Shown here in pieces: positions 10,037 to 63,395 of a stretch of 64,000 bases of DNA. The stretch comes from Candidatus Eiseniibacteriota bacterium (GTDB taxonomy: Bacteria; Eisenbacteria; RBG-16-71-46; JABDJR01): the NCBI GenBank assembly GCA_963783375.1, contig CAWANH010000028.1, positions 64,001 to 128,000 of the forward strand, given 5' to 3'. Under the pieces are notes generated by a model, which was not told where the DNA came from, did not search any database, and worked only from the letters and a program-made list of their open reading frames with translations. Numbering within the stretch: position 1 is the stretch's first letter; every line of letters starts with the position of its first letter. Both the position numbers and the translations under genes were made by a program.

Positions 10037-10276
10037 GCAACGTCTCCTGATGGGGATCAAACCTGACTTCAAAGGGGATCAAAGGCGAAGGATTCTATCA
10101 CGTTTGGCGAGCCGTCACGCGGGGCAGTCCACGGGGCCTCCGCGAATTCAGGGTTGGAGGAAGCGGTATCGATTCCGCCATCGTCTCCCTCAACCCCCGA
10201 TACAAACCATGGCCCGGCAACCCGTTCCGGCGCTCCGCCCTCCCCCGCGCTCCCTCGCTCTGCTATCCTTCCCGCC

Positions 10277-11650
10277 ATGAAACACGTCGCCCTTTTCCTG
10301 ACCCTGGCCCTGGTCCTGGCCGCCTGCGGGTCCGGCCCCCGGGAGAAGGCGCCCGCCTCCGGCGACGGCGCCCCCGCGGAAACCACGGCCAAGGCCGGAA
10401 AGCTGACCCTCCCCTTTCTGGCCGACGACTACGCCGGCGCCCTGAGCCAGGCCCGGGAGCGGAAGCTCCCCATCTTCATCGAGACCTGGGCTCCCTGGTG
10501 ACACACCTGTCGCTCGATGAAGGCCTTCGTCTTTACCGATGAGGCCCTCGAGAGCGAAGCCGGGCGGTTCGTCTGGCTCGAGCTGAACACGGAACGCGCG
10601 GAGAACGCCCCGGTGGTGGCCGCCCTCCACGTCCAGGCCCTCCCTACCTATTACATCGTGGACCCGGAGAGCGAGCGCATCCTGGCCCGCCGGCTGGGCG
10701 GCGCCACCGTGGCCCAGCTCAAGGGCTTCCTGGACTCGGGCTACGACACCTTCGCCGGCACCGGACTCGCCCCCGCCGATCGCCACGTGGCGCGCGCCGA
10801 ATCGCTCTACGCCGCGGGGGACATGCCCGCCGCGATCGCCGCCTACCGCGTCGCCCTGGACGAGGGCGGCCCGGAATGGTCCGGCTATCCCATGACCATG
10901 GAAGCCCTCCTCTACGCGCTCCAGATGCACGAGGAGTTCGAGCCCGCGGCGATCCTCGCCCGGGAGAGCTATCCCCGCCTCCGCCGCACCGCCTCCGCGG
11001 CCAACGTGGCCGGGGTGGGGCTCGACAGCGCCCTGGAGCTGGCGTCCGACGACCCCGATCGGGCCGGGCTCATCCACGACCTCATGACCGACGCGGAGGA
11101 GGTCACCTCCGACCGCTCGATCCCCGTGGCCGCCGACGACCGGTCCTCGGTGTTCGGCTCGCTCATCTCGGCCCAGGAAAGCCTCGGGGATTCCGCGGCG
11201 GCGCGCGCGACCACCGAGGCCTGGGCGGAATTCCTGGAGGGCGAGGCGGCCCGGGCCCGGACCCCCGACGAACGCGCGGTGTTCGACTCCCACCGCCTGA
11301 GCGCCTACCTGGAGCTGGGCGAGCCCGAGCGAGCGATTCCCATGCTCCGGCGATCCGAGCGCGACCTCCCCGGCGACTACAACCCACCGGCCCGGCTCGC
11401 CGTCGCCTACCTCCGGATGGGCCGGCTCGACGACGCCCTGAGCGCCTCGGATCGCGCCCTGGCCAAGGCCTACGGGCCGCGAAAGCTCCGCATCCTCCTC
11501 AACCGGGCGGACATCCTGGTCGCGAAAGAGGACCCGGCCGGGGCCCGCAGGACCCTGGAGGACGCCCTCGACCTGGCCCGGGGCATGCCGCCGGAGCAGC
11601 GATCGAAGTCGATGATCGCCCGGATCGAAAAGCGCATCGCGGGGACATGA
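10277..11650 (+). CDS. probable selenocysteine-containing thioredoxin-like/TPR lipoprotein (WAPW-U-HTC)
   Basis: ORFs 10154-10501 and 10517-11650 share one frame and are separated only by TGA 10499-10501 at the first position of a CxxC site. Lipobox LAAC, Trx elements (FVWLELNTE, ALPTYYIVDP), TPR-like helices. Confidence 0.85.
10511..10556 (+). promoter_or_regulatory. candidate bacterial SECIS hairpin
   Basis: GATGAA-GGCC-TTCGTC (10516-10531) with a G-initiated loop 20 nt after TGA. An alternative longer stem (CGCTC..GGCCTTCGTC/GATGAGGCC..GAGCG) is also possible. Confidence 0.5.
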
Positions 11651-13131
11651 CCTTGCCCGCCCCGCGCGCGCTTCGGCCGACGACCGTTCCCGGGGCGATC
11701 GCCGTCACCGCCCTCGCCCTCTTCGTCTTCGGGATCGCGCCGGCCCGCGCCGGCGGCATCGTCATCGACGGCCGGTTCGACGACTGGGCGGGGACCGCGC
11801 CCGCCTACGAACGCGCGCACGCGGAGACCCCGCCGGCGGGCGAACGGGCCGATGCGCGGACGGTGATCGAAGCGGTGTGGGTGTCATCCGACCGCGACCG
11901 CCTGGCCGTCCGCTTCCGGCTGAGCCGCGCGATCTCCCTCCAGAAGGACAACACTCTCGTCCTGGATCTGGACACCGATCTGTCCGGGTCGACCGGCTTT
12001 CTCCCCGATGGCGCCGACCTCCGCTGGACCTTCGCCGGGAGCGAGGGGCGGGCCGTCGTACTCGGGGTTCCGGTCCGGCTCACCCCCGCCGCGGTGGGCC
12101 TTCGCCAGGGACCCACCGTCACCTCCCGCGAGTTCGAGGTCTCCTTCGACCGGCGCGCCTCGGTGGCCGGGGCCCCGATCCTCGCCGGGGACTCGGTGAC
12201 CGTGGTGTTGCGGGACCAGGGCCCTTCGCCGTTCTCGACCGGCAGGCTCACCGCCGCGCTCTCCGATCGCCTCCCCGAGGCCGGCCCGCCGCCCTCCTTC
12301 GCCCGCCGGGACCCCACCGACCTCCGTCTCCTCACCTACAACGTCCTCTTCGACGGCTGCTTCGACCGCCCCGAGCCCTTCCGGCGGATCCTCCGGGCCC
12401 TCGACCCCGACGTCGTCTGCTTCCAGGAGATCTACAACCACTCCCCCGAAGAGGTGCGGGAGTGGATGGAACAGACGCTACCCGGAATCCGGTGGATGAT
12501 CGCGGGAGACGGCGGCCAGGGGATCGTGGCGAGCCGCTACCCGGTCCGGGACTCCGGACCCCTGGGGGCGAGGCGCCGGGGCGGCTGGGCGCGGATCGGG
12601 ACCCCCGAAGGCGACCTCCTGGTGGTCAATCCCCACCCCCCCTGCTGCAACGACGACGCCGGCCGGGAACGGGAGTTCGACGCCATGGCCGCCTGGATCC
12701 GGGACGGGCGCCGCGCCGGGCGCCTGTCCGCGAACATCCCCCTGGTGATCGCGGGGGACATGAACCTGGTCGGGGACGCCCGCCAGCTGGCCACCCTGCT
12801 CACCGGGACCATCGTGGACACCGCGGCCTTCGGCCCGGGGGCCGCTCCCGACGGGGACGGAACCCCCCTCGAGGACGCCGTCCCCCTCCACCTCACCGGG
12901 CGCGAGTCCTATACCTGGCGAAACGACCGCGGGGCCTTCGCTCCCGGCCGGCTCGACTACATCGTCTTCTCGGACAGCGTGCTCGGGCTGGCCCGGTCGT
13001 TCGTGCTGTGGACCCCGGATCTTCCGCCCGCGTTTCTCGAGGCGTCCGGGCTCGAGCCCATGGACACCGCGATCGCCTCGGACCACCTGCCGGTGGTGGC
13101 CGACTTCTACTTCCCCGGCTCCTCCCGCTGA
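11647..13131 (+). CDS. secreted endonuclease/exonuclease/phosphatase (EEP) family protein with N-terminal beta-rich domain
   Basis: Signal peptide, LLTYNV, DVVCFQEI, AGDMN, RLDYI, SDHLPV. ATGA overlap with the upstream gene. Confidence 0.88.
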   Translation: MTLPAPRALRPTTVPGAIAVTALALFVFGIAPARAGGIVIDGRFDDWAGTAPAYERAHAETPPAGERADARTVIEAVWVSSDRDRLAVRFRLSRAISLQKDNTLVLDLDTDLSGSTGFLPDGADLRWTFAGSEGRAVVLGVPVRLTPAAVGLRQGPTVTSREFEVSFDRRASVAGAPILAGDSVTVVLRDQGPSPFSTGRLTAALSDRLPEAGPPPSFARRDPTDLRLLTYNVLFDGCFDRPEPFRRILRALDPDVVCFQEIYNHSPEEVREWMEQTLPGIRWMIAGDGGQGIVASRYPVRDSGPLGARRRGGWARIGTPEGDLLVVNPHPPCCNDDAGREREFDAMAAWIRDGRRAGRLSANIPLVIAGDMNLVGDARQLATLLTGTIVDTAAFGPGAAPDGDGTPLEDAVPLHLTGRESYTWRNDRGAFAPGRLDYIVFSDSVLGLARSFVLWTPDLPPAFLEASGLEPMDTAIASDHLPVVADFYFPGSSR

Positions 13132-14694: not shown

Positions 14695-15558
14695 TCAGAC
14701 CGCGGGAACCAGCGTCCCGTCCTCGATGAGCCCGGAGACCACGTCGGGGGCCTCCGACGCATCCGCCCCCAGCTTCGTGATCTCACCGACCAGGGCATCG
14801 AAATCCCGGGGGGCACCGGCAAAGGCCAGGAACTCGTAGAGGCCCCGGGTGATCTCCGTGGCCCCGGCGGCGAACCGCACGCGGGGACCGTCGTCCCGGA
14901 CGAGTTCCAGGAGAAGGAACTCGGGCCGCGCCGGGTCGAGCCGGGTACCCGGCATGGACGCCGGGGAATCGAGCACGGCGCGGGCCAGGTCCCCGGTGGA
15001 GCCGGCGAGCGCCACGTGGATCGCCTCGTGGAGGTCGGCGGTCCGGCGGGGAGCGGTGTGAAGCGCCTTGTCCGTGGAGAGCCGCCAGGCCGAGCCCTCC
15101 CCGGGGTCCTCCGGAGACGGCGGGGCGTCCCGGTGAAGCCGGACGATCGCCTGCTCCAGCCGGGCCAGCGCGGTCACCCTTCGATCGGGCACGCTTCCCG
15201 CGGCGGCCTGATCGGCCAGGTAATCCCCGAAGGCCAGGGCCATCGATCCCCGCTCCTGGACCGAAGCGTGGAAGGGGGCGGAGCCGAAGAAGGCGAGGAG
15301 CGGGCCGGGACCTTCGGCCGAGCGCACGGCCAGCGCCCCCGCGGCCGGGTACTGCTGGAGAAGAATGTTGAGCGAGCGCACCGGGCGCTCGGAGTCGACG
15401 CGCCAGGCGCGCGGATCCGGCCCGAGAAGCCACCCCCGCTCCTCGGCGGTGAGATCGATCCCCGCCAGCGCTCCGTCGGGATCCCCCAGCACCCGCCGGG
15501 CGAACCCCGGGTCGTAGAGCATCCGCACCATGACCCGCTGGAGCGCGACGTGGCTCAT
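14695..15558 (-). CDS. DUF2063/RRE-like partner of the DUF692 enzyme
   Basis: ATGA-coupled to DUF692. Motifs LQQYP, FGDYL..LARLEQA and a C-terminal winged-helix-like segment. Confidence 0.7.
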   Translation of the reverse strand: MSHVALQRVMVRMLYDPGFARRVLGDPDGALAGIDLTAEERGWLLGPDPRAWRVDSERPVRSLNILLQQYPAAGALAVRSAEGPGPLLAFFGSAPFHASVQERGSMALAFGDYLADQAAAGSVPDRRVTALARLEQAIVRLHRDAPPSPEDPGEGSAWRLSTDKALHTAPRRTADLHEAIHVALAGSTGDLARAVLDSPASMPGTRLDPARPEFLLLELVRDDGPRVRFAAGATEITRGLYEFLAFAGAPRDFDALVGEITKLGADASEAPDVVSGLIEDGTLVPAV

Positions 15559-16442
15559 CCGGCCCCCGTTCCCAGGAGCGGTGATCCGGAGAGCACCGAG
15601 GCGATCCGCGCGAAGCCCGGAAGGGTCTCGGGAAGGGGGTTTCGCTCGCACTCGAACACCACCGCCCGGAGGTTCGGGCAGCGGGGCACCAGGTGTTCGA
15701 AGATCCTCCAGGTCTCGGCCAGCACCTCGGGGGTGTGGTCGTCTTCCACGTACTCCCATCCGTCGTGGGACCGGCCGCTCCCCCCCGCCACGTGCATCTC
15801 CACGATTCGCTCCATGGGAAACCCGTCCAGGCCGGTGAGCGGCGCGTGCCCGTGGCTCTTCTGGTAGATGGCCAGGTGGGCGCAGTCGAGGAGCATCCCG
15901 GTGTCGGCGCGCCCGATCGCCCGGGCGAAGAAGTCCAGGAGATGGAGGTTCCCCAGGAACACCGCCCCGGGCGGGTTTTCGGGGAACACCTCGTAGCCCA
16001 CCGACTCGCGCAGCCGGATCACGCCCTCGGCGATCGCCTCCGCCGAGGCCTCGGAGAGGATCGGGGGAAGGAGCAGCATGTGCCCAGGCTCGCGCCCCCC
16101 GAAATGCCACATCCCGGCATCCCCGCAGAACCAGGCCGGCCGGAGGGCGGCGGCCAGGGAACGAACCTCGTCCAGCCAGGCCGGCTCGAAGTCCTCGGGA
16201 TCGTCCAGGTTCAGGTCGAGGAAGTGGTAGGTGGCGGGAAGCCCCAGCCCGGCCCACTCCCGGGCGTGTCGATCGAGCCCGGAGAGCGTCTCCACCCCGA
16301 CCTCCAGGAAGCCGGCGTAGGCCGGGTGGAGATGCCGAAGCTCGGGCACGTCGAGACCGCGGGGGGAATCTCCCGCCCCGTATTCGGTAGATACTCCAAG
16401 ACCCAACCGGGGAAGCGCCAGGACACGCTGACTGAAGTCCAT
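15555..16442 (-). CDS. DUF692 family multinuclear non-heme iron-dependent oxidative enzyme (MNIO)
   Basis: LGLG, FLEV, YH, LLLPP, PENPP, MLLDCAH, EMHVAGG, DDH, VVFECE. Confidence 0.88.
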   Translation of the reverse strand: MDFSQRVLALPRLGLGVSTEYGAGDSPRGLDVPELRHLHPAYAGFLEVGVETLSGLDRHAREWAGLGLPATYHFLDLNLDDPEDFEPAWLDEVRSLAAALRPAWFCGDAGMWHFGGREPGHMLLLPPILSEASAEAIAEGVIRLRESVGYEVFPENPPGAVFLGNLHLLDFFARAIGRADTGMLLDCAHLAIYQKSHGHAPLTGLDGFPMERIVEMHVAGGSGRSHDGWEYVEDDHTPEVLAETWRIFEHLVPRCPNLRAVVFECERNPLPETLPGFARIASVLSGSPLLGTGAG

Positions 16443-61754: not shown

Positions 61755-63395
61755 TCACCTGTCATGACTATCGTCATCATTCGTGTCGCCTCTCATCAAA
61801 CCATGCTTTCGCATCTTGTTGTGGAGGTTGGTCCGCGAGATCTGAAGCGTTCGTGCGGCCCGGGAGACCACGCCGTTCTGCCGGCTCAAGGCGTCGAGGA
61901 TGAGGCGCCTCTCGTAGCGTTGAACCGCTTCGGGAAGCGGGGCGCCGGCGACCGCCCGCTCCGAGGCCTCGGAGCGGCGGGGGGCGGGCCCCATGGGAAG
62001 CTCCTCCACCTCCACCAGGTCCCCCCGCTGCTTGAGCAATAGGCTCCGCTCGACCACGTTCCGGAGTTCGCGCACGTTCCCCGGCCACCCGTAGCCCAGG
62101 AGCACCTCCTCCGCCGCCGGAGAGAACCCGGACACCTTGCGGTTGGTTTCCCGCGCCAGATCCTCCAGGAAGCGCCGGGCCAGGGGGAGGATGTCGTCCC
62201 GCCGCTGGCGAAGGGGAGAGACGGTGAGGGTGATCACGTTGAGACGGTAGAAGAGATCCTCGCGAAACCGCCCCTGGCGGACGGCGAGCTGGGGGTCGGC
62301 GTTGGTGGCGGCCACCACGCGGACGTCCACGCTCCGGTCGCGGTTCTCCCCCACCCGGCGCACCTTCCGCTGCTCGAGCACGGTGAGGAGCTTGACCTGG
62401 GCCTCCGGAGGAAGCTCGGCCACCTCGTCGAGCAGGATGGTGCCGCCGTTCGCCTCCTCGAACAGGCCGTGGCGTTCGCGGTCCGCACCGGTGAACGCGC
62501 CCTTGGCGTGCCCGAAGAGTTCGCTCTCCACCAGACCGGGAGCCACCGCCCCGCAGTTGACCTCCACGAACGCCCCCTCCCGCCGGGCGCTCAGGTTGTG
62601 GAGGATCCGGGCAACCAGGCTCTTTCCCGTTCCGCTCTCACCCAGGAGGAGCACGGTGGCGTCGGTGGCCGCCGCGGCCTCGACCTGCTGGGCGAGCTGC
62701 CTCATCACCGGGCTGGGGCCCCGGATCCAGGAGAGATCCGGGCGACGGCGGGGATCGGCCTCGAGCCGCTTGACCCGCCGCCCGAGGCTCCGCGCCTCGT
62801 CCCGGAGCCGGCGCACCAGGTCCGCGTTCCGGATGAACAGGGCGGCCTGGATGGCCAGGGCGGAGAGGAGCTTCAGGTCCCCGGCGCTGAAGAGGTCCCC
62901 GGCCCCCCGCTTGCCCAGGCAGATCACCCCGAGGACCTCCGTCCCCGCGGCCAGGGGGGCGGCCAGAAACGCGCGCGGGAGCTCCCCGGCGTGGGCCCGG
63001 GCGGCCAGCCGGCCCTTCCGGTCCGCGGGTTGGAGGCGAAGGCTGAGCGCCCGCGGGAGGTCGTCGACGACGTAGGGGAGGGCCCCCTCATCCGCCAGGG
63101 GCTCCAGGAGGGAGCGAGCCAGAAACTCCGAAACCGCCGGCTTGACTCCCTGGGAGGCGGTGGTCTCCAGCCGGCCGAGGGTTCCCCTTCGGGCCATCCA
63201 TCCCCCATCGGCCCGAAAGATCGCCGCGGTCTCCCGCACCAGGTACTCGTCGAGGTCCCCGATCCCCTCCGGCCGGGCCAGGACTGCGGCCAGACTGTGG
63301 ACGAAGTCCAGCTCCTCGAAGGTCCCGAGGAGTTTCTCGGTGATGTTCTCGAGACGGCGTTCCAACTCCGCCGCGTCGCGTGGCGCCAACTCCAC
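61755..63395 (-). CDS. GAF-domain sigma54-dependent enhancer-binding protein (Fis HTH)
   Basis: GESGTGKS, ESELFGH..GAFTGA, LLDEV, FREDLFYRLNV, WPGNVREL. Start uncertain (63389-63443). Confidence 0.93.
   Translation of the reverse strand: MELAPRDAAELERRLENITEKLLGTFEELDFVHSLAAVLARPEGIGDLDEYLVRETAAIFRADGGWMARRGTLGRLETTASQGVKPAVSEFLARSLLEPLADEGALPYVVDDLPRALSLRLQPADRKGRLAARAHAGELPRAFLAAPLAAGTEVLGVICLGKRGAGDLFSAGDLKLLSALAIQAALFIRNADLVRRLRDEARSLGRRVKRLEADPRRRPDLSWIRGPSPVMRQLAQQVEAAAATDATVLLLGESGTGKSLVARILHNLSARREGAFVEVNCGAVAPGLVESELFGHAKGAFTGADRERHGLFEEANGGTILLDEVAELPPEAQVKLLTVLEQRKVRRVGENRDRSVDVRVVAATNADPQLAVRQGRFREDLFYRLNVITLTVSPLRQRRDDILPLARRFLEDLARETNRKVSGFSPAAEEVLLGYGWPGNVRELRNVVERSLLLKQRGDLVEVEELPMGPAPRRSEASERAVAGAPLPEAVQRYERRLILDALSRQNGVVSRAARTLQISRTNLHNKMRKHGLMRGDTNDDDSHDR

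Follow-up and report, generated by a model that had tools for sequence, protein, structure and literature searches.

A likely selenocysteine-containing thioredoxin-TPR gene of Candidatus Eiseniibacteriota with a proposed two-hairpin recoding signal

The window, a stretch of 64,000 nucleotides from a Candidatus Eiseniibacteriota genome (contig CAWANH010000028.1, positions 64,001 to 128,000), carries on its plus strand at 10277..11650 a single frame of 457 codons plus a stop, which begins at ATG 10277, ends at TGA 11648-11650 and has as its sole internal break TGA 10499-10501 (codon 75), around which the translation reads WAPW, stop, HTC. A plain ORF caller returns two ORFs here, one ending at 10501 and the other spanning 10517-11650. 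An earlier first-pass annotation, made from the sequence, had joined the two into one frame broken only by TGA 10499, and our re-reading of the frame agrees; its further remark that automated pipelines would split the gene holds for the ORF caller and also for the protein collection, where 43 of the best 120 homologues start at a Met six codons past the TGA and the remaining 77 extend over the full length and have CxxC. The annotation had also advised looking for TGC or TGT at 10499-10501. Contigs (not raw reads) from four runs of four studies span these positions and list no other letter; because these contigs agree, and because 99 distinct homologous alleles have the same TGA, the codon is not an assembly error.

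A predicted extended −10 promoter element, TG-n-TATCCT, lies at 10261..10269 (plus strand), 7 nt before the ATG. Of 122 alleles, 78 have TAnnnT 6-8 nt upstream of the start, compared with 2 of 738 internal ATGs, and this sequence pattern suggests a leaderless mRNA; a scan for sigma-70 promoters and terminators found none. The stop codon of the gene is overlapped (ATGA) by a gene at 11647-13131 that encodes an endonuclease/exonuclease/phosphatase domain and, by prediction, a signal peptide, a neighbour found only among the closest relatives. When 238 ORFs around the homologues were clustered (flanks 1.5-4 kb), no conserved neighbourhood hinting at a client was found, the neighbours that recur beyond close kin being only generic kinases in variable position. 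Farther on, the minus strand of the window carries at 14695-16442 a gene for an MNIO (MbnB/TglH/ChrH, PF05114) RiPP-modifying enzyme, adjoined by an ORF with a weak Frankia_peptide match; the start of this second gene is uncertain.

The encoded protein is predicted to be exported. Its first 17 residues (10277..10327, plus strand) form a predicted lipoprotein signal peptide, in which the LAAC lipobox that had been noted earlier together with WAPW-TGA-HTC is again seen, at residues 14-17; the lipobox Cys17 follows a hydrophobic signal and the genome has lspA (signal peptidase II), so lipidation is predicted. A lipid anchor, as first proposed, fits this gene and its own clade, eight members of which keep the lipobox, but does not extend to most of the family, where the N-terminus is of the ordinary signal-peptide-like kind; of 122 alleles, 12 have a lipobox-like motif. 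By a crude hydrophobicity rule, 122 of 132 alleles have a signal-peptide-like start.

A thioredoxin (Trx) fold domain follows at residues about 47-160 (10415..10756, plus strand), with the motif W74-U75-H76-T77-C78, and then a TPR-like helical solenoid at residues 166-456 (10772..11647, plus strand) with 15 predicted helices. Pfam matches the former with PF13899 (40.2 bits, cut-off 27) and PF00085 (26.5, cut-off 23.5) and the latter with TPR_12 (40.3, cut-off 30.1). The fold, the (U/C)xxC at the start of helix 1 and a conserved Pro loop, whose Pro123 is invariant in 96 alignment rows, place the first domain in the thioredoxin superfamily, and the solenoid has the conserved motifs DDRS, DSHRL, DYNPPARL and YGPRK. 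An AlphaFold2 model built from the 96-row alignment has a pLDDT of 91.7 and a pTM of 0.88, with a disordered N-terminus. In fold searches the solenoid matched the LGN TPR domain (Z 17.0, rmsd 5.4, 284 aligned) and the Trx domain matched the DsbD C-terminal domain and DsbH (Z 14-16); by sequence, the nearest solved structures are a putative disulfide isomerase and DsbD C-terminal domains. Pfam, model and fold search thus agree with the fusion of thioredoxin to TPR that had been proposed at the outset.

Codon 75 and the selenocysteine machinery

Codon 75 was compared in two sets of homologous alleles. The first comprised 89 loci, which, minus 10 duplicates and 2 short ones, gave 77 distinct alleles (65 TGA, 12 TGC/TGT). 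The second, held out, consisted of 60 stretches picked by the presence or absence of an internal TGA before the RNA was looked at, and with 5 already seen dropped it gave 30 TGA alleles, 21 Cys alleles and 4 TGA alleles of a divergent subfamily. Across the 132 distinct alleles the codon is TGA in 99, TGC or TGT in 33 and nothing else, the two states for which the first-pass annotation had advised checking homologues. The UGA aligns with the Cys of homologues, the frame is conserved on both sides, and the full UxxC/CxxC motif is retained in all 132 alleles.

The genome, which is 97% complete, has genes above cut-off for selA (551 bits), selB (328) and selD (391), the last with an in-frame TGA of its own, as well as a tRNA-Sec(tca) (score 68.5), so that the search for selA, selB, selC and selD suggested earlier found selA, selB, selD and the tRNA-Sec all present. 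The length of SelB, judged by eye, is ordinary, and a special linker is therefore not invoked. A second, low-scoring tRNA-Sec call (G000:C29:1065038-1065127) appears only with relaxed ARAGORN settings, has no RF01852 match and is probably spurious. Among genomes with a TGA allele, 26 of 27 have selA or selB, the exception being G073 (2.4 Mb), in which neither was found; this is a weak test, since 59 of 61 relatives have selA, as do all 8 Cys-allele genomes, and the machinery cannot separate TGA from Cys alleles. Together, the Sec genes and the interchange of TGA with Cys codons alone back the original proposal for the in-frame UGA at 10499..10501 (plus strand), and residue 75 is very likely selenocysteine.

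The Trx-TPR family is present in 105 of 206 genomes of the phylum and comprises 750 clusters at 50% identity (E at most 1e-30), with named relatives labelled Candidatus Eisenbacteria, Acidobacteriota and others; a Ca. Eisenbacteria relative, 69% identical, shares a supported clade with the window gene. The divergent subfamily (L161-L164, 35% identity) has the motif W-U-Y-S-C and is a second copy in four genomes. Two TGA alleles, L058 and L059, appear in the search table as two frames after about residue 160, through assembly error or decay.

Just 5′ of the window lies a second exported Trx-TPR gene (L120:4123-5328; contig C28, about 62120-63328), with an in-frame TGA in W-U-G-S-C and 20% identity to the window gene in the Trx part. 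Its family is found in 25 of the 206 genomes, against 105 for that of the window gene, and the two are almost complementary: in f10 they occur in 0 and 82 of 89 genomes, in f16 in 8 and 0 of 15, and both are found in f1 and f2. A heuristic scan, incomplete by design, gave further UGA selenoprotein candidates in this genome (L229-L233, L010), namely SelD, a SelW-like protein, a TUGYCR redoxin lipoprotein and four UshA-like genes, of which the C28 827464 copy agrees at its start with that on C25 and then apparently shifts frame.

Two hairpins behind the UGA codon

The first-pass annotation had placed a hairpin 14 nt past the TGA. The hairpin is real, with its start 8 nt past the codon: hairpin 1 (10510..10557, plus strand) folds at −26.3 kcal/mol (z −4.3; as stable in 0 of 200 shuffles). 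Against synonymous shuffles its mean z is −2.5 in the 65 TGA alleles and −0.5 in the 12 Cys alleles, while the next 21 nt, taken as a control in the same test, give −0.1 and −0.15, and hairpin 1 is under selection only in TGA alleles. Its sequence and register vary: 70% of cells are paired in the register of the window, RNAalifold returns only hairpin 2, and in the divergent subfamily the sequence differs yet a long stem still folds in all four members. The same annotation had taken this 3′ hairpin to complete the selenocysteine signature; hairpin 1 is indeed selected, but its predicted loop, UUUACC (10532-10537), is without G, and it is probably not the element to which SelB binds. We propose that it acts as a spacer.

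Directly behind it lies hairpin 2 (10559..10577, plus strand), missed in the first-pass annotation, which has an 8-bp stem and a GUU loop at 10567-10569 and is our proposed SelB-binding SECIS core. The loop falls at +66 to +68, that is, 65 nt past the UGA, and at 62 nt in the divergent subfamily. By the bSECIS rules hairpin 2 (3-nt loop, 8 bp, mean −12.4 kcal/mol) is within the ranges for loop (3-9 nt), upper stem (4-16 bp) and energy (at most −7.5 kcal/mol) and has the loop pattern N1-G-[GU]-N-N2 with G within the first two loop positions, the consensus pattern given in section 5 of PMC13188914; it falls outside the rule of 16-37 nt from UGA to loop. In joint folds of the first set it forms in all 65 TGA alleles and in none of the 12 Cys alleles; in the held-out set it forms in 30 of 30 TGA and 1 of 21 Cys alleles. 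Its mean pairing probability is 0.98 in TGA and 0.03 in Cys alleles. The loop is GUU in 63 of 65 and 30 of 30 TGA alleles. The closing pair alternates between G-C and A-U and is A-C in 13 of 65, hence a 5-nt loop.

At the codon level, this difference between TGA and Cys alleles is largely synonymous. The Gly codon in TGA alleles is GGA or GGG, with GGC in 0 of 63 against 900 of 1596 elsewhere in these genes, and the Val codon is GTC in 60 of 61 TGA alleles, with GTG taking its place in Cys alleles (first set 11 of 11, second set 14 of 21). The only TGA allele with GTG (L108) has a compensating change on the other strand, G-C to C-G. Compensatory double changes occur in three pairs of hairpin 2; this covariation is thin because most pairs are invariant, which constraint on the protein explains in part. 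Separately, Val GTG at this position of the Cys alleles (codon 24 past the site) is commoner than the 320 of 818 found for Val before Trp in the genome, an excess that may mean that a remnant SelB-binding hairpin is selected against, or that the alleles share this stretch by descent.

Hairpin 2 also follows the codon along the phylogeny. On a FastTree tree of 117 rows (hairpin codons excluded, 11 rows left out as short, divergent subfamily not included; a quick tree had 67 rows, with 10 left out as short), the Sec/Cys state changes 17 times, at least 12 of these changes being forced by supported branches, and in independent pairs hairpin 2 follows the codon in 11 of 12 and opposes it in none (p about 0.001). 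L122, the one Cys allele that keeps an intact hairpin 2, has the codon TGT, one base from TGA, and its sister row is Sec, as would be expected of a recent Sec-to-Cys switch. The divergent subfamily (35% identical), which is one codon shorter here, has hairpin 2 letter for letter, 3 nt earlier; in 120-nt folds it forms in two of the four members, rival pairings competing in the other two. In 301 sampled genomes of a second phylum, the pattern of TGA, gap and hairpin 2 was found in 16, always in this gene and with a 57-nt gap (15 of 300 without the unpublished genome G244), and a reversed control pattern gave no match in the same sample.

Other approaches to the RNA were less informative. Between 10400 and 10700 no Rfam family reached its gathering score. 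Another candidate close to the UGA, a hairpin with a GGCC loop at +21, was rejected at mean pairing probabilities of 0.00 in TGA and 0.02 in Cys alleles. A covariance model of both hairpins matched only this site in the genome, with 150 of 9434 candidates scored, and was set aside as evidence since coding sequence common to both kinds of allele lets it score Cys alleles too.

Elsewhere in the genome, a SelW-like gene (TIGR02174) and a redoxin (NF053656) have the same purine-GUU-pyrimidine loop as hairpin 2, placed at +22 and +17, and in the second Trx-TPR family a near hairpin whose loop lies at about +22 was counted by eye in 13 of 17 TGA rows. Because these other UGA sites have near hairpins, the far hairpin is a peculiarity of the window-gene family and not of the organism.

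How a loop so distant could serve SelB is suggested by the fold itself. With the UGA in the A site, hairpin 1, whose outer pair joins +6..+12 to +53..+58, would fold out about 45-50 nt, and the 5-15 unpaired nucleotides that would then separate the UGA from hairpin 2 (a range found in 65 of 65 alleles with hairpin 1 folded out) would bring the GUU loop to the normal place of a SECIS loop, where SelB-GTP-Sec-tRNA bound to hairpin 2 could decode the UGA; failure of recoding would release a short truncated lipopeptide. The published bacterial consensus has a loop with G at 16-37 nt from the UGA (PMC13188914). In E. coli the 17-nt upper hairpin, whose loop includes G23 and U24, stands 11 nt from the UGA (PMC8659212); modelling of SelB on the ribosome separates the loop from the A-site codon by about 57 Å, or about 13 nt (PMC4605307), and an approaching ribosome unwinds the lower SECIS (PMC7026636). 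The spacer model fits these distances.

The same region could be read differently, with Sec real, hairpin 1 as the SECIS, and hairpin 2 reduced to an enhancer, a pause site or an additional loading site for SelB. Hairpin 1 is selected in TGA alleles and its distance is the usual one; if a 9-nt loop that starts with G-U at +28 is forced on it, it passes the consensus rules. However, a permissive bSECIS rule scan passes it only with the top three tip pairs opened, one of which (U29-A38) has a pairing probability of 0.998 in the window, and with the tip so opened the scan accepts 97 of 99 TGA alleles together with 26 of 33 Cys alleles and does not discriminate between them. The divergent subfamily, moreover, replaces the tip sequence and keeps hairpin 2 letter for letter, and it is the loop of hairpin 2 that is common to two other selenoprotein genes of the genome. 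We regard this arrangement as unlikely.

Hairpin 2 is probably the SelB site, and a bipartite SECIS, in which a SelB-binding hairpin some 65 nt from the UGA stands behind a sequence-free spacer, would rather likely be a second architecture, with hundreds of genes across two or more phyla using it.

Role of the exported protein

The genome encodes DsbD, next to a ResA/TlpA-like gene, and neither DsbB nor VKOR was found in it at 97% completeness. Given the presence of DsbD, the failure to find DsbB or VKOR, a Trx domain whose nearest solved structures are DsbD and isomerase domains, and the lack of conserved gene neighbours, we favour, by a modest degree, a stand-alone envelope disulfide reductase or isomerase recycled by DsbD. 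In such an enzyme the TPR groove would hold envelope proteins, the exported Sec would attack their disulfides or oxidised cysteines, Cys78 would resolve the adduct, and DsbD would re-reduce the site. The conserved TPR motifs presumably form the client site, and the TPR arm may select the clients.

The chief rival to this role, possible but improbable in our view, is that the selenoprotein acts mainly as an exported chaperedoxin, a CnoX-like holdase whose TPR groove holds unfolded envelope proteins while Sec protects their cysteines. The Trx-TPR order is that of CnoX/YbbN as outlined in PMC8129009, some database names read 'thioredoxin-like negative regulator of GroEL', and YbbN structures are among the fold matches; these matches are, however, poor (TM 0.20, rmsd about 24), the many invariant polar residues of the TPR part suit a site for specific binding better than the surface of a general holdase, and UxxC/CxxC is kept whole in every allele.

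Still less probable is a DsbA-like oxidase that puts disulfides into exported proteins. The protein has an export signal, and the His within its xx dipeptide is reminiscent of DsbA and PDI, which counts for such an oxidase, but it has no DsbA family match, and the genome offers DsbD and, as far as found, neither DsbB nor VKOR. Finally, a TGA that truly stops translation, or that is decoded as Trp or Cys, giving two genes, a pseudogene or a variant code, is very hard to sustain: there is an ATG six codons past the TGA, the start point of the 43 database homologues, but a stop here would sever the catalytic motif, the 99 TGA alleles, from at least two phyla, keep the frames on both sides intact and never have TAA or TAG, TGA closes ordinary genes of the genome (including this gene, selA, selB and selD), and the hairpins co-vary with codon 75. 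Taken as a whole, the combination of a Sec-decoded UGA, an envelope Trx-TPR protein, a DsbD-fed reductase or isomerase and a two-hairpin signal appears fairly probable.

Relation to known selenoproteins and SECIS elements

The family adds one more thioredoxin-fold selenoprotein, but one that is large, truncated in databases and without a curated model. No NCBIfam model (June 2026) matches the protein at cut-off, and a scan of 96 family members gave only generic thioredoxin, DsbD and TPR models, whereas the other selenoproteins of the genome match dedicated ones. TPR, tetratricopeptide and lipoprotein have no occurrence in the main text of a 2026 inventory (PMC13188914), including its table of 119 families, and the main texts on BSepDB (PMC13326102) and deep-Sep (PMC12013277) make no mention of TPR. 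Searches of open-access text turned up no account of the Trx-TPR family or of a far bacterial SECIS with a spacer hairpin. The family is thus apparently uncatalogued, and members could sit in the BSepDB family list under a generic thioredoxin class.

The RNA signal carries greater weight than the family. The main texts on BSepDB and deep-Sep state that atypical SECIS elements exist (PMC13326102, PMC12013277), 87.4% of BSepDB entries being canonical (PMC13326102), and the two-hairpin signal is a concrete candidate for the uncharacterised elements on which, according to reviews, some genes must rely, with at least 12 independent Sec/Cys switches and matching hairpin loss as natural controls. If the bipartite SECIS is true, some of the selenoprotein genes without a canonical SECIS could be explained by it, bacterial selenoprotein prediction would change, and the SECIS could be moved off the residues beside the active site in recombinant selenoprotein production.

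Among known proteins, the closest in kind are the UxxC thioredoxin-fold selenoproteins of Table 1 in PMC13188914 (Sec-thioredoxin PF00085, the PF13098 'thiol:disulfide interchange protein' and SaoT NF040730), with which this protein shares the fold, Sec as the first residue of the motif, Cys homologues and the SelB pathway; it differs in its 457 residues, its export signal and its TPR solenoid of 290 residues. The Trx7/PDZ selenoprotein NF041199 and TsoB (NF045694) likewise have a Thioredoxin_7 or DsbD-gamma-like domain in a selenoprotein, but with CxxU and UxxxxU motifs and other partner domains. Membership of either was rejected, for NF041199 at 12.1 bits against a cut-off of 300, with UxxC in place of CxxU and no PDZ match, and for TsoB at 24 against 805. 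CnoX/YbbN has the same N-terminal thioredoxin domain followed by a C-terminal TPR domain, but CnoX has about 282 residues and, as portrayed in PMC8129009, works with the cytoplasmic foldases DnaK and GroEL, whereas the present protein has a signal peptide, a longer solenoid and Sec; the CnoX/YbbN structures 3qou and 3qdn match it at TM 0.20 and are absent from the best 60 sequence matches listed. The proposed SECIS, for its part, resembles the canonical bacterial element (E. coli fdhF type; bSECISearch consensus) in being a coding-region hairpin 3′ of the UGA with a small G-then-U loop, a stem of 7-8 bp and an energy below −7.5 kcal/mol, and differs from it in that the loop stands 65 nt from the UGA, as against 16-37 nt, with a separate hairpin of 45-50 nt between.
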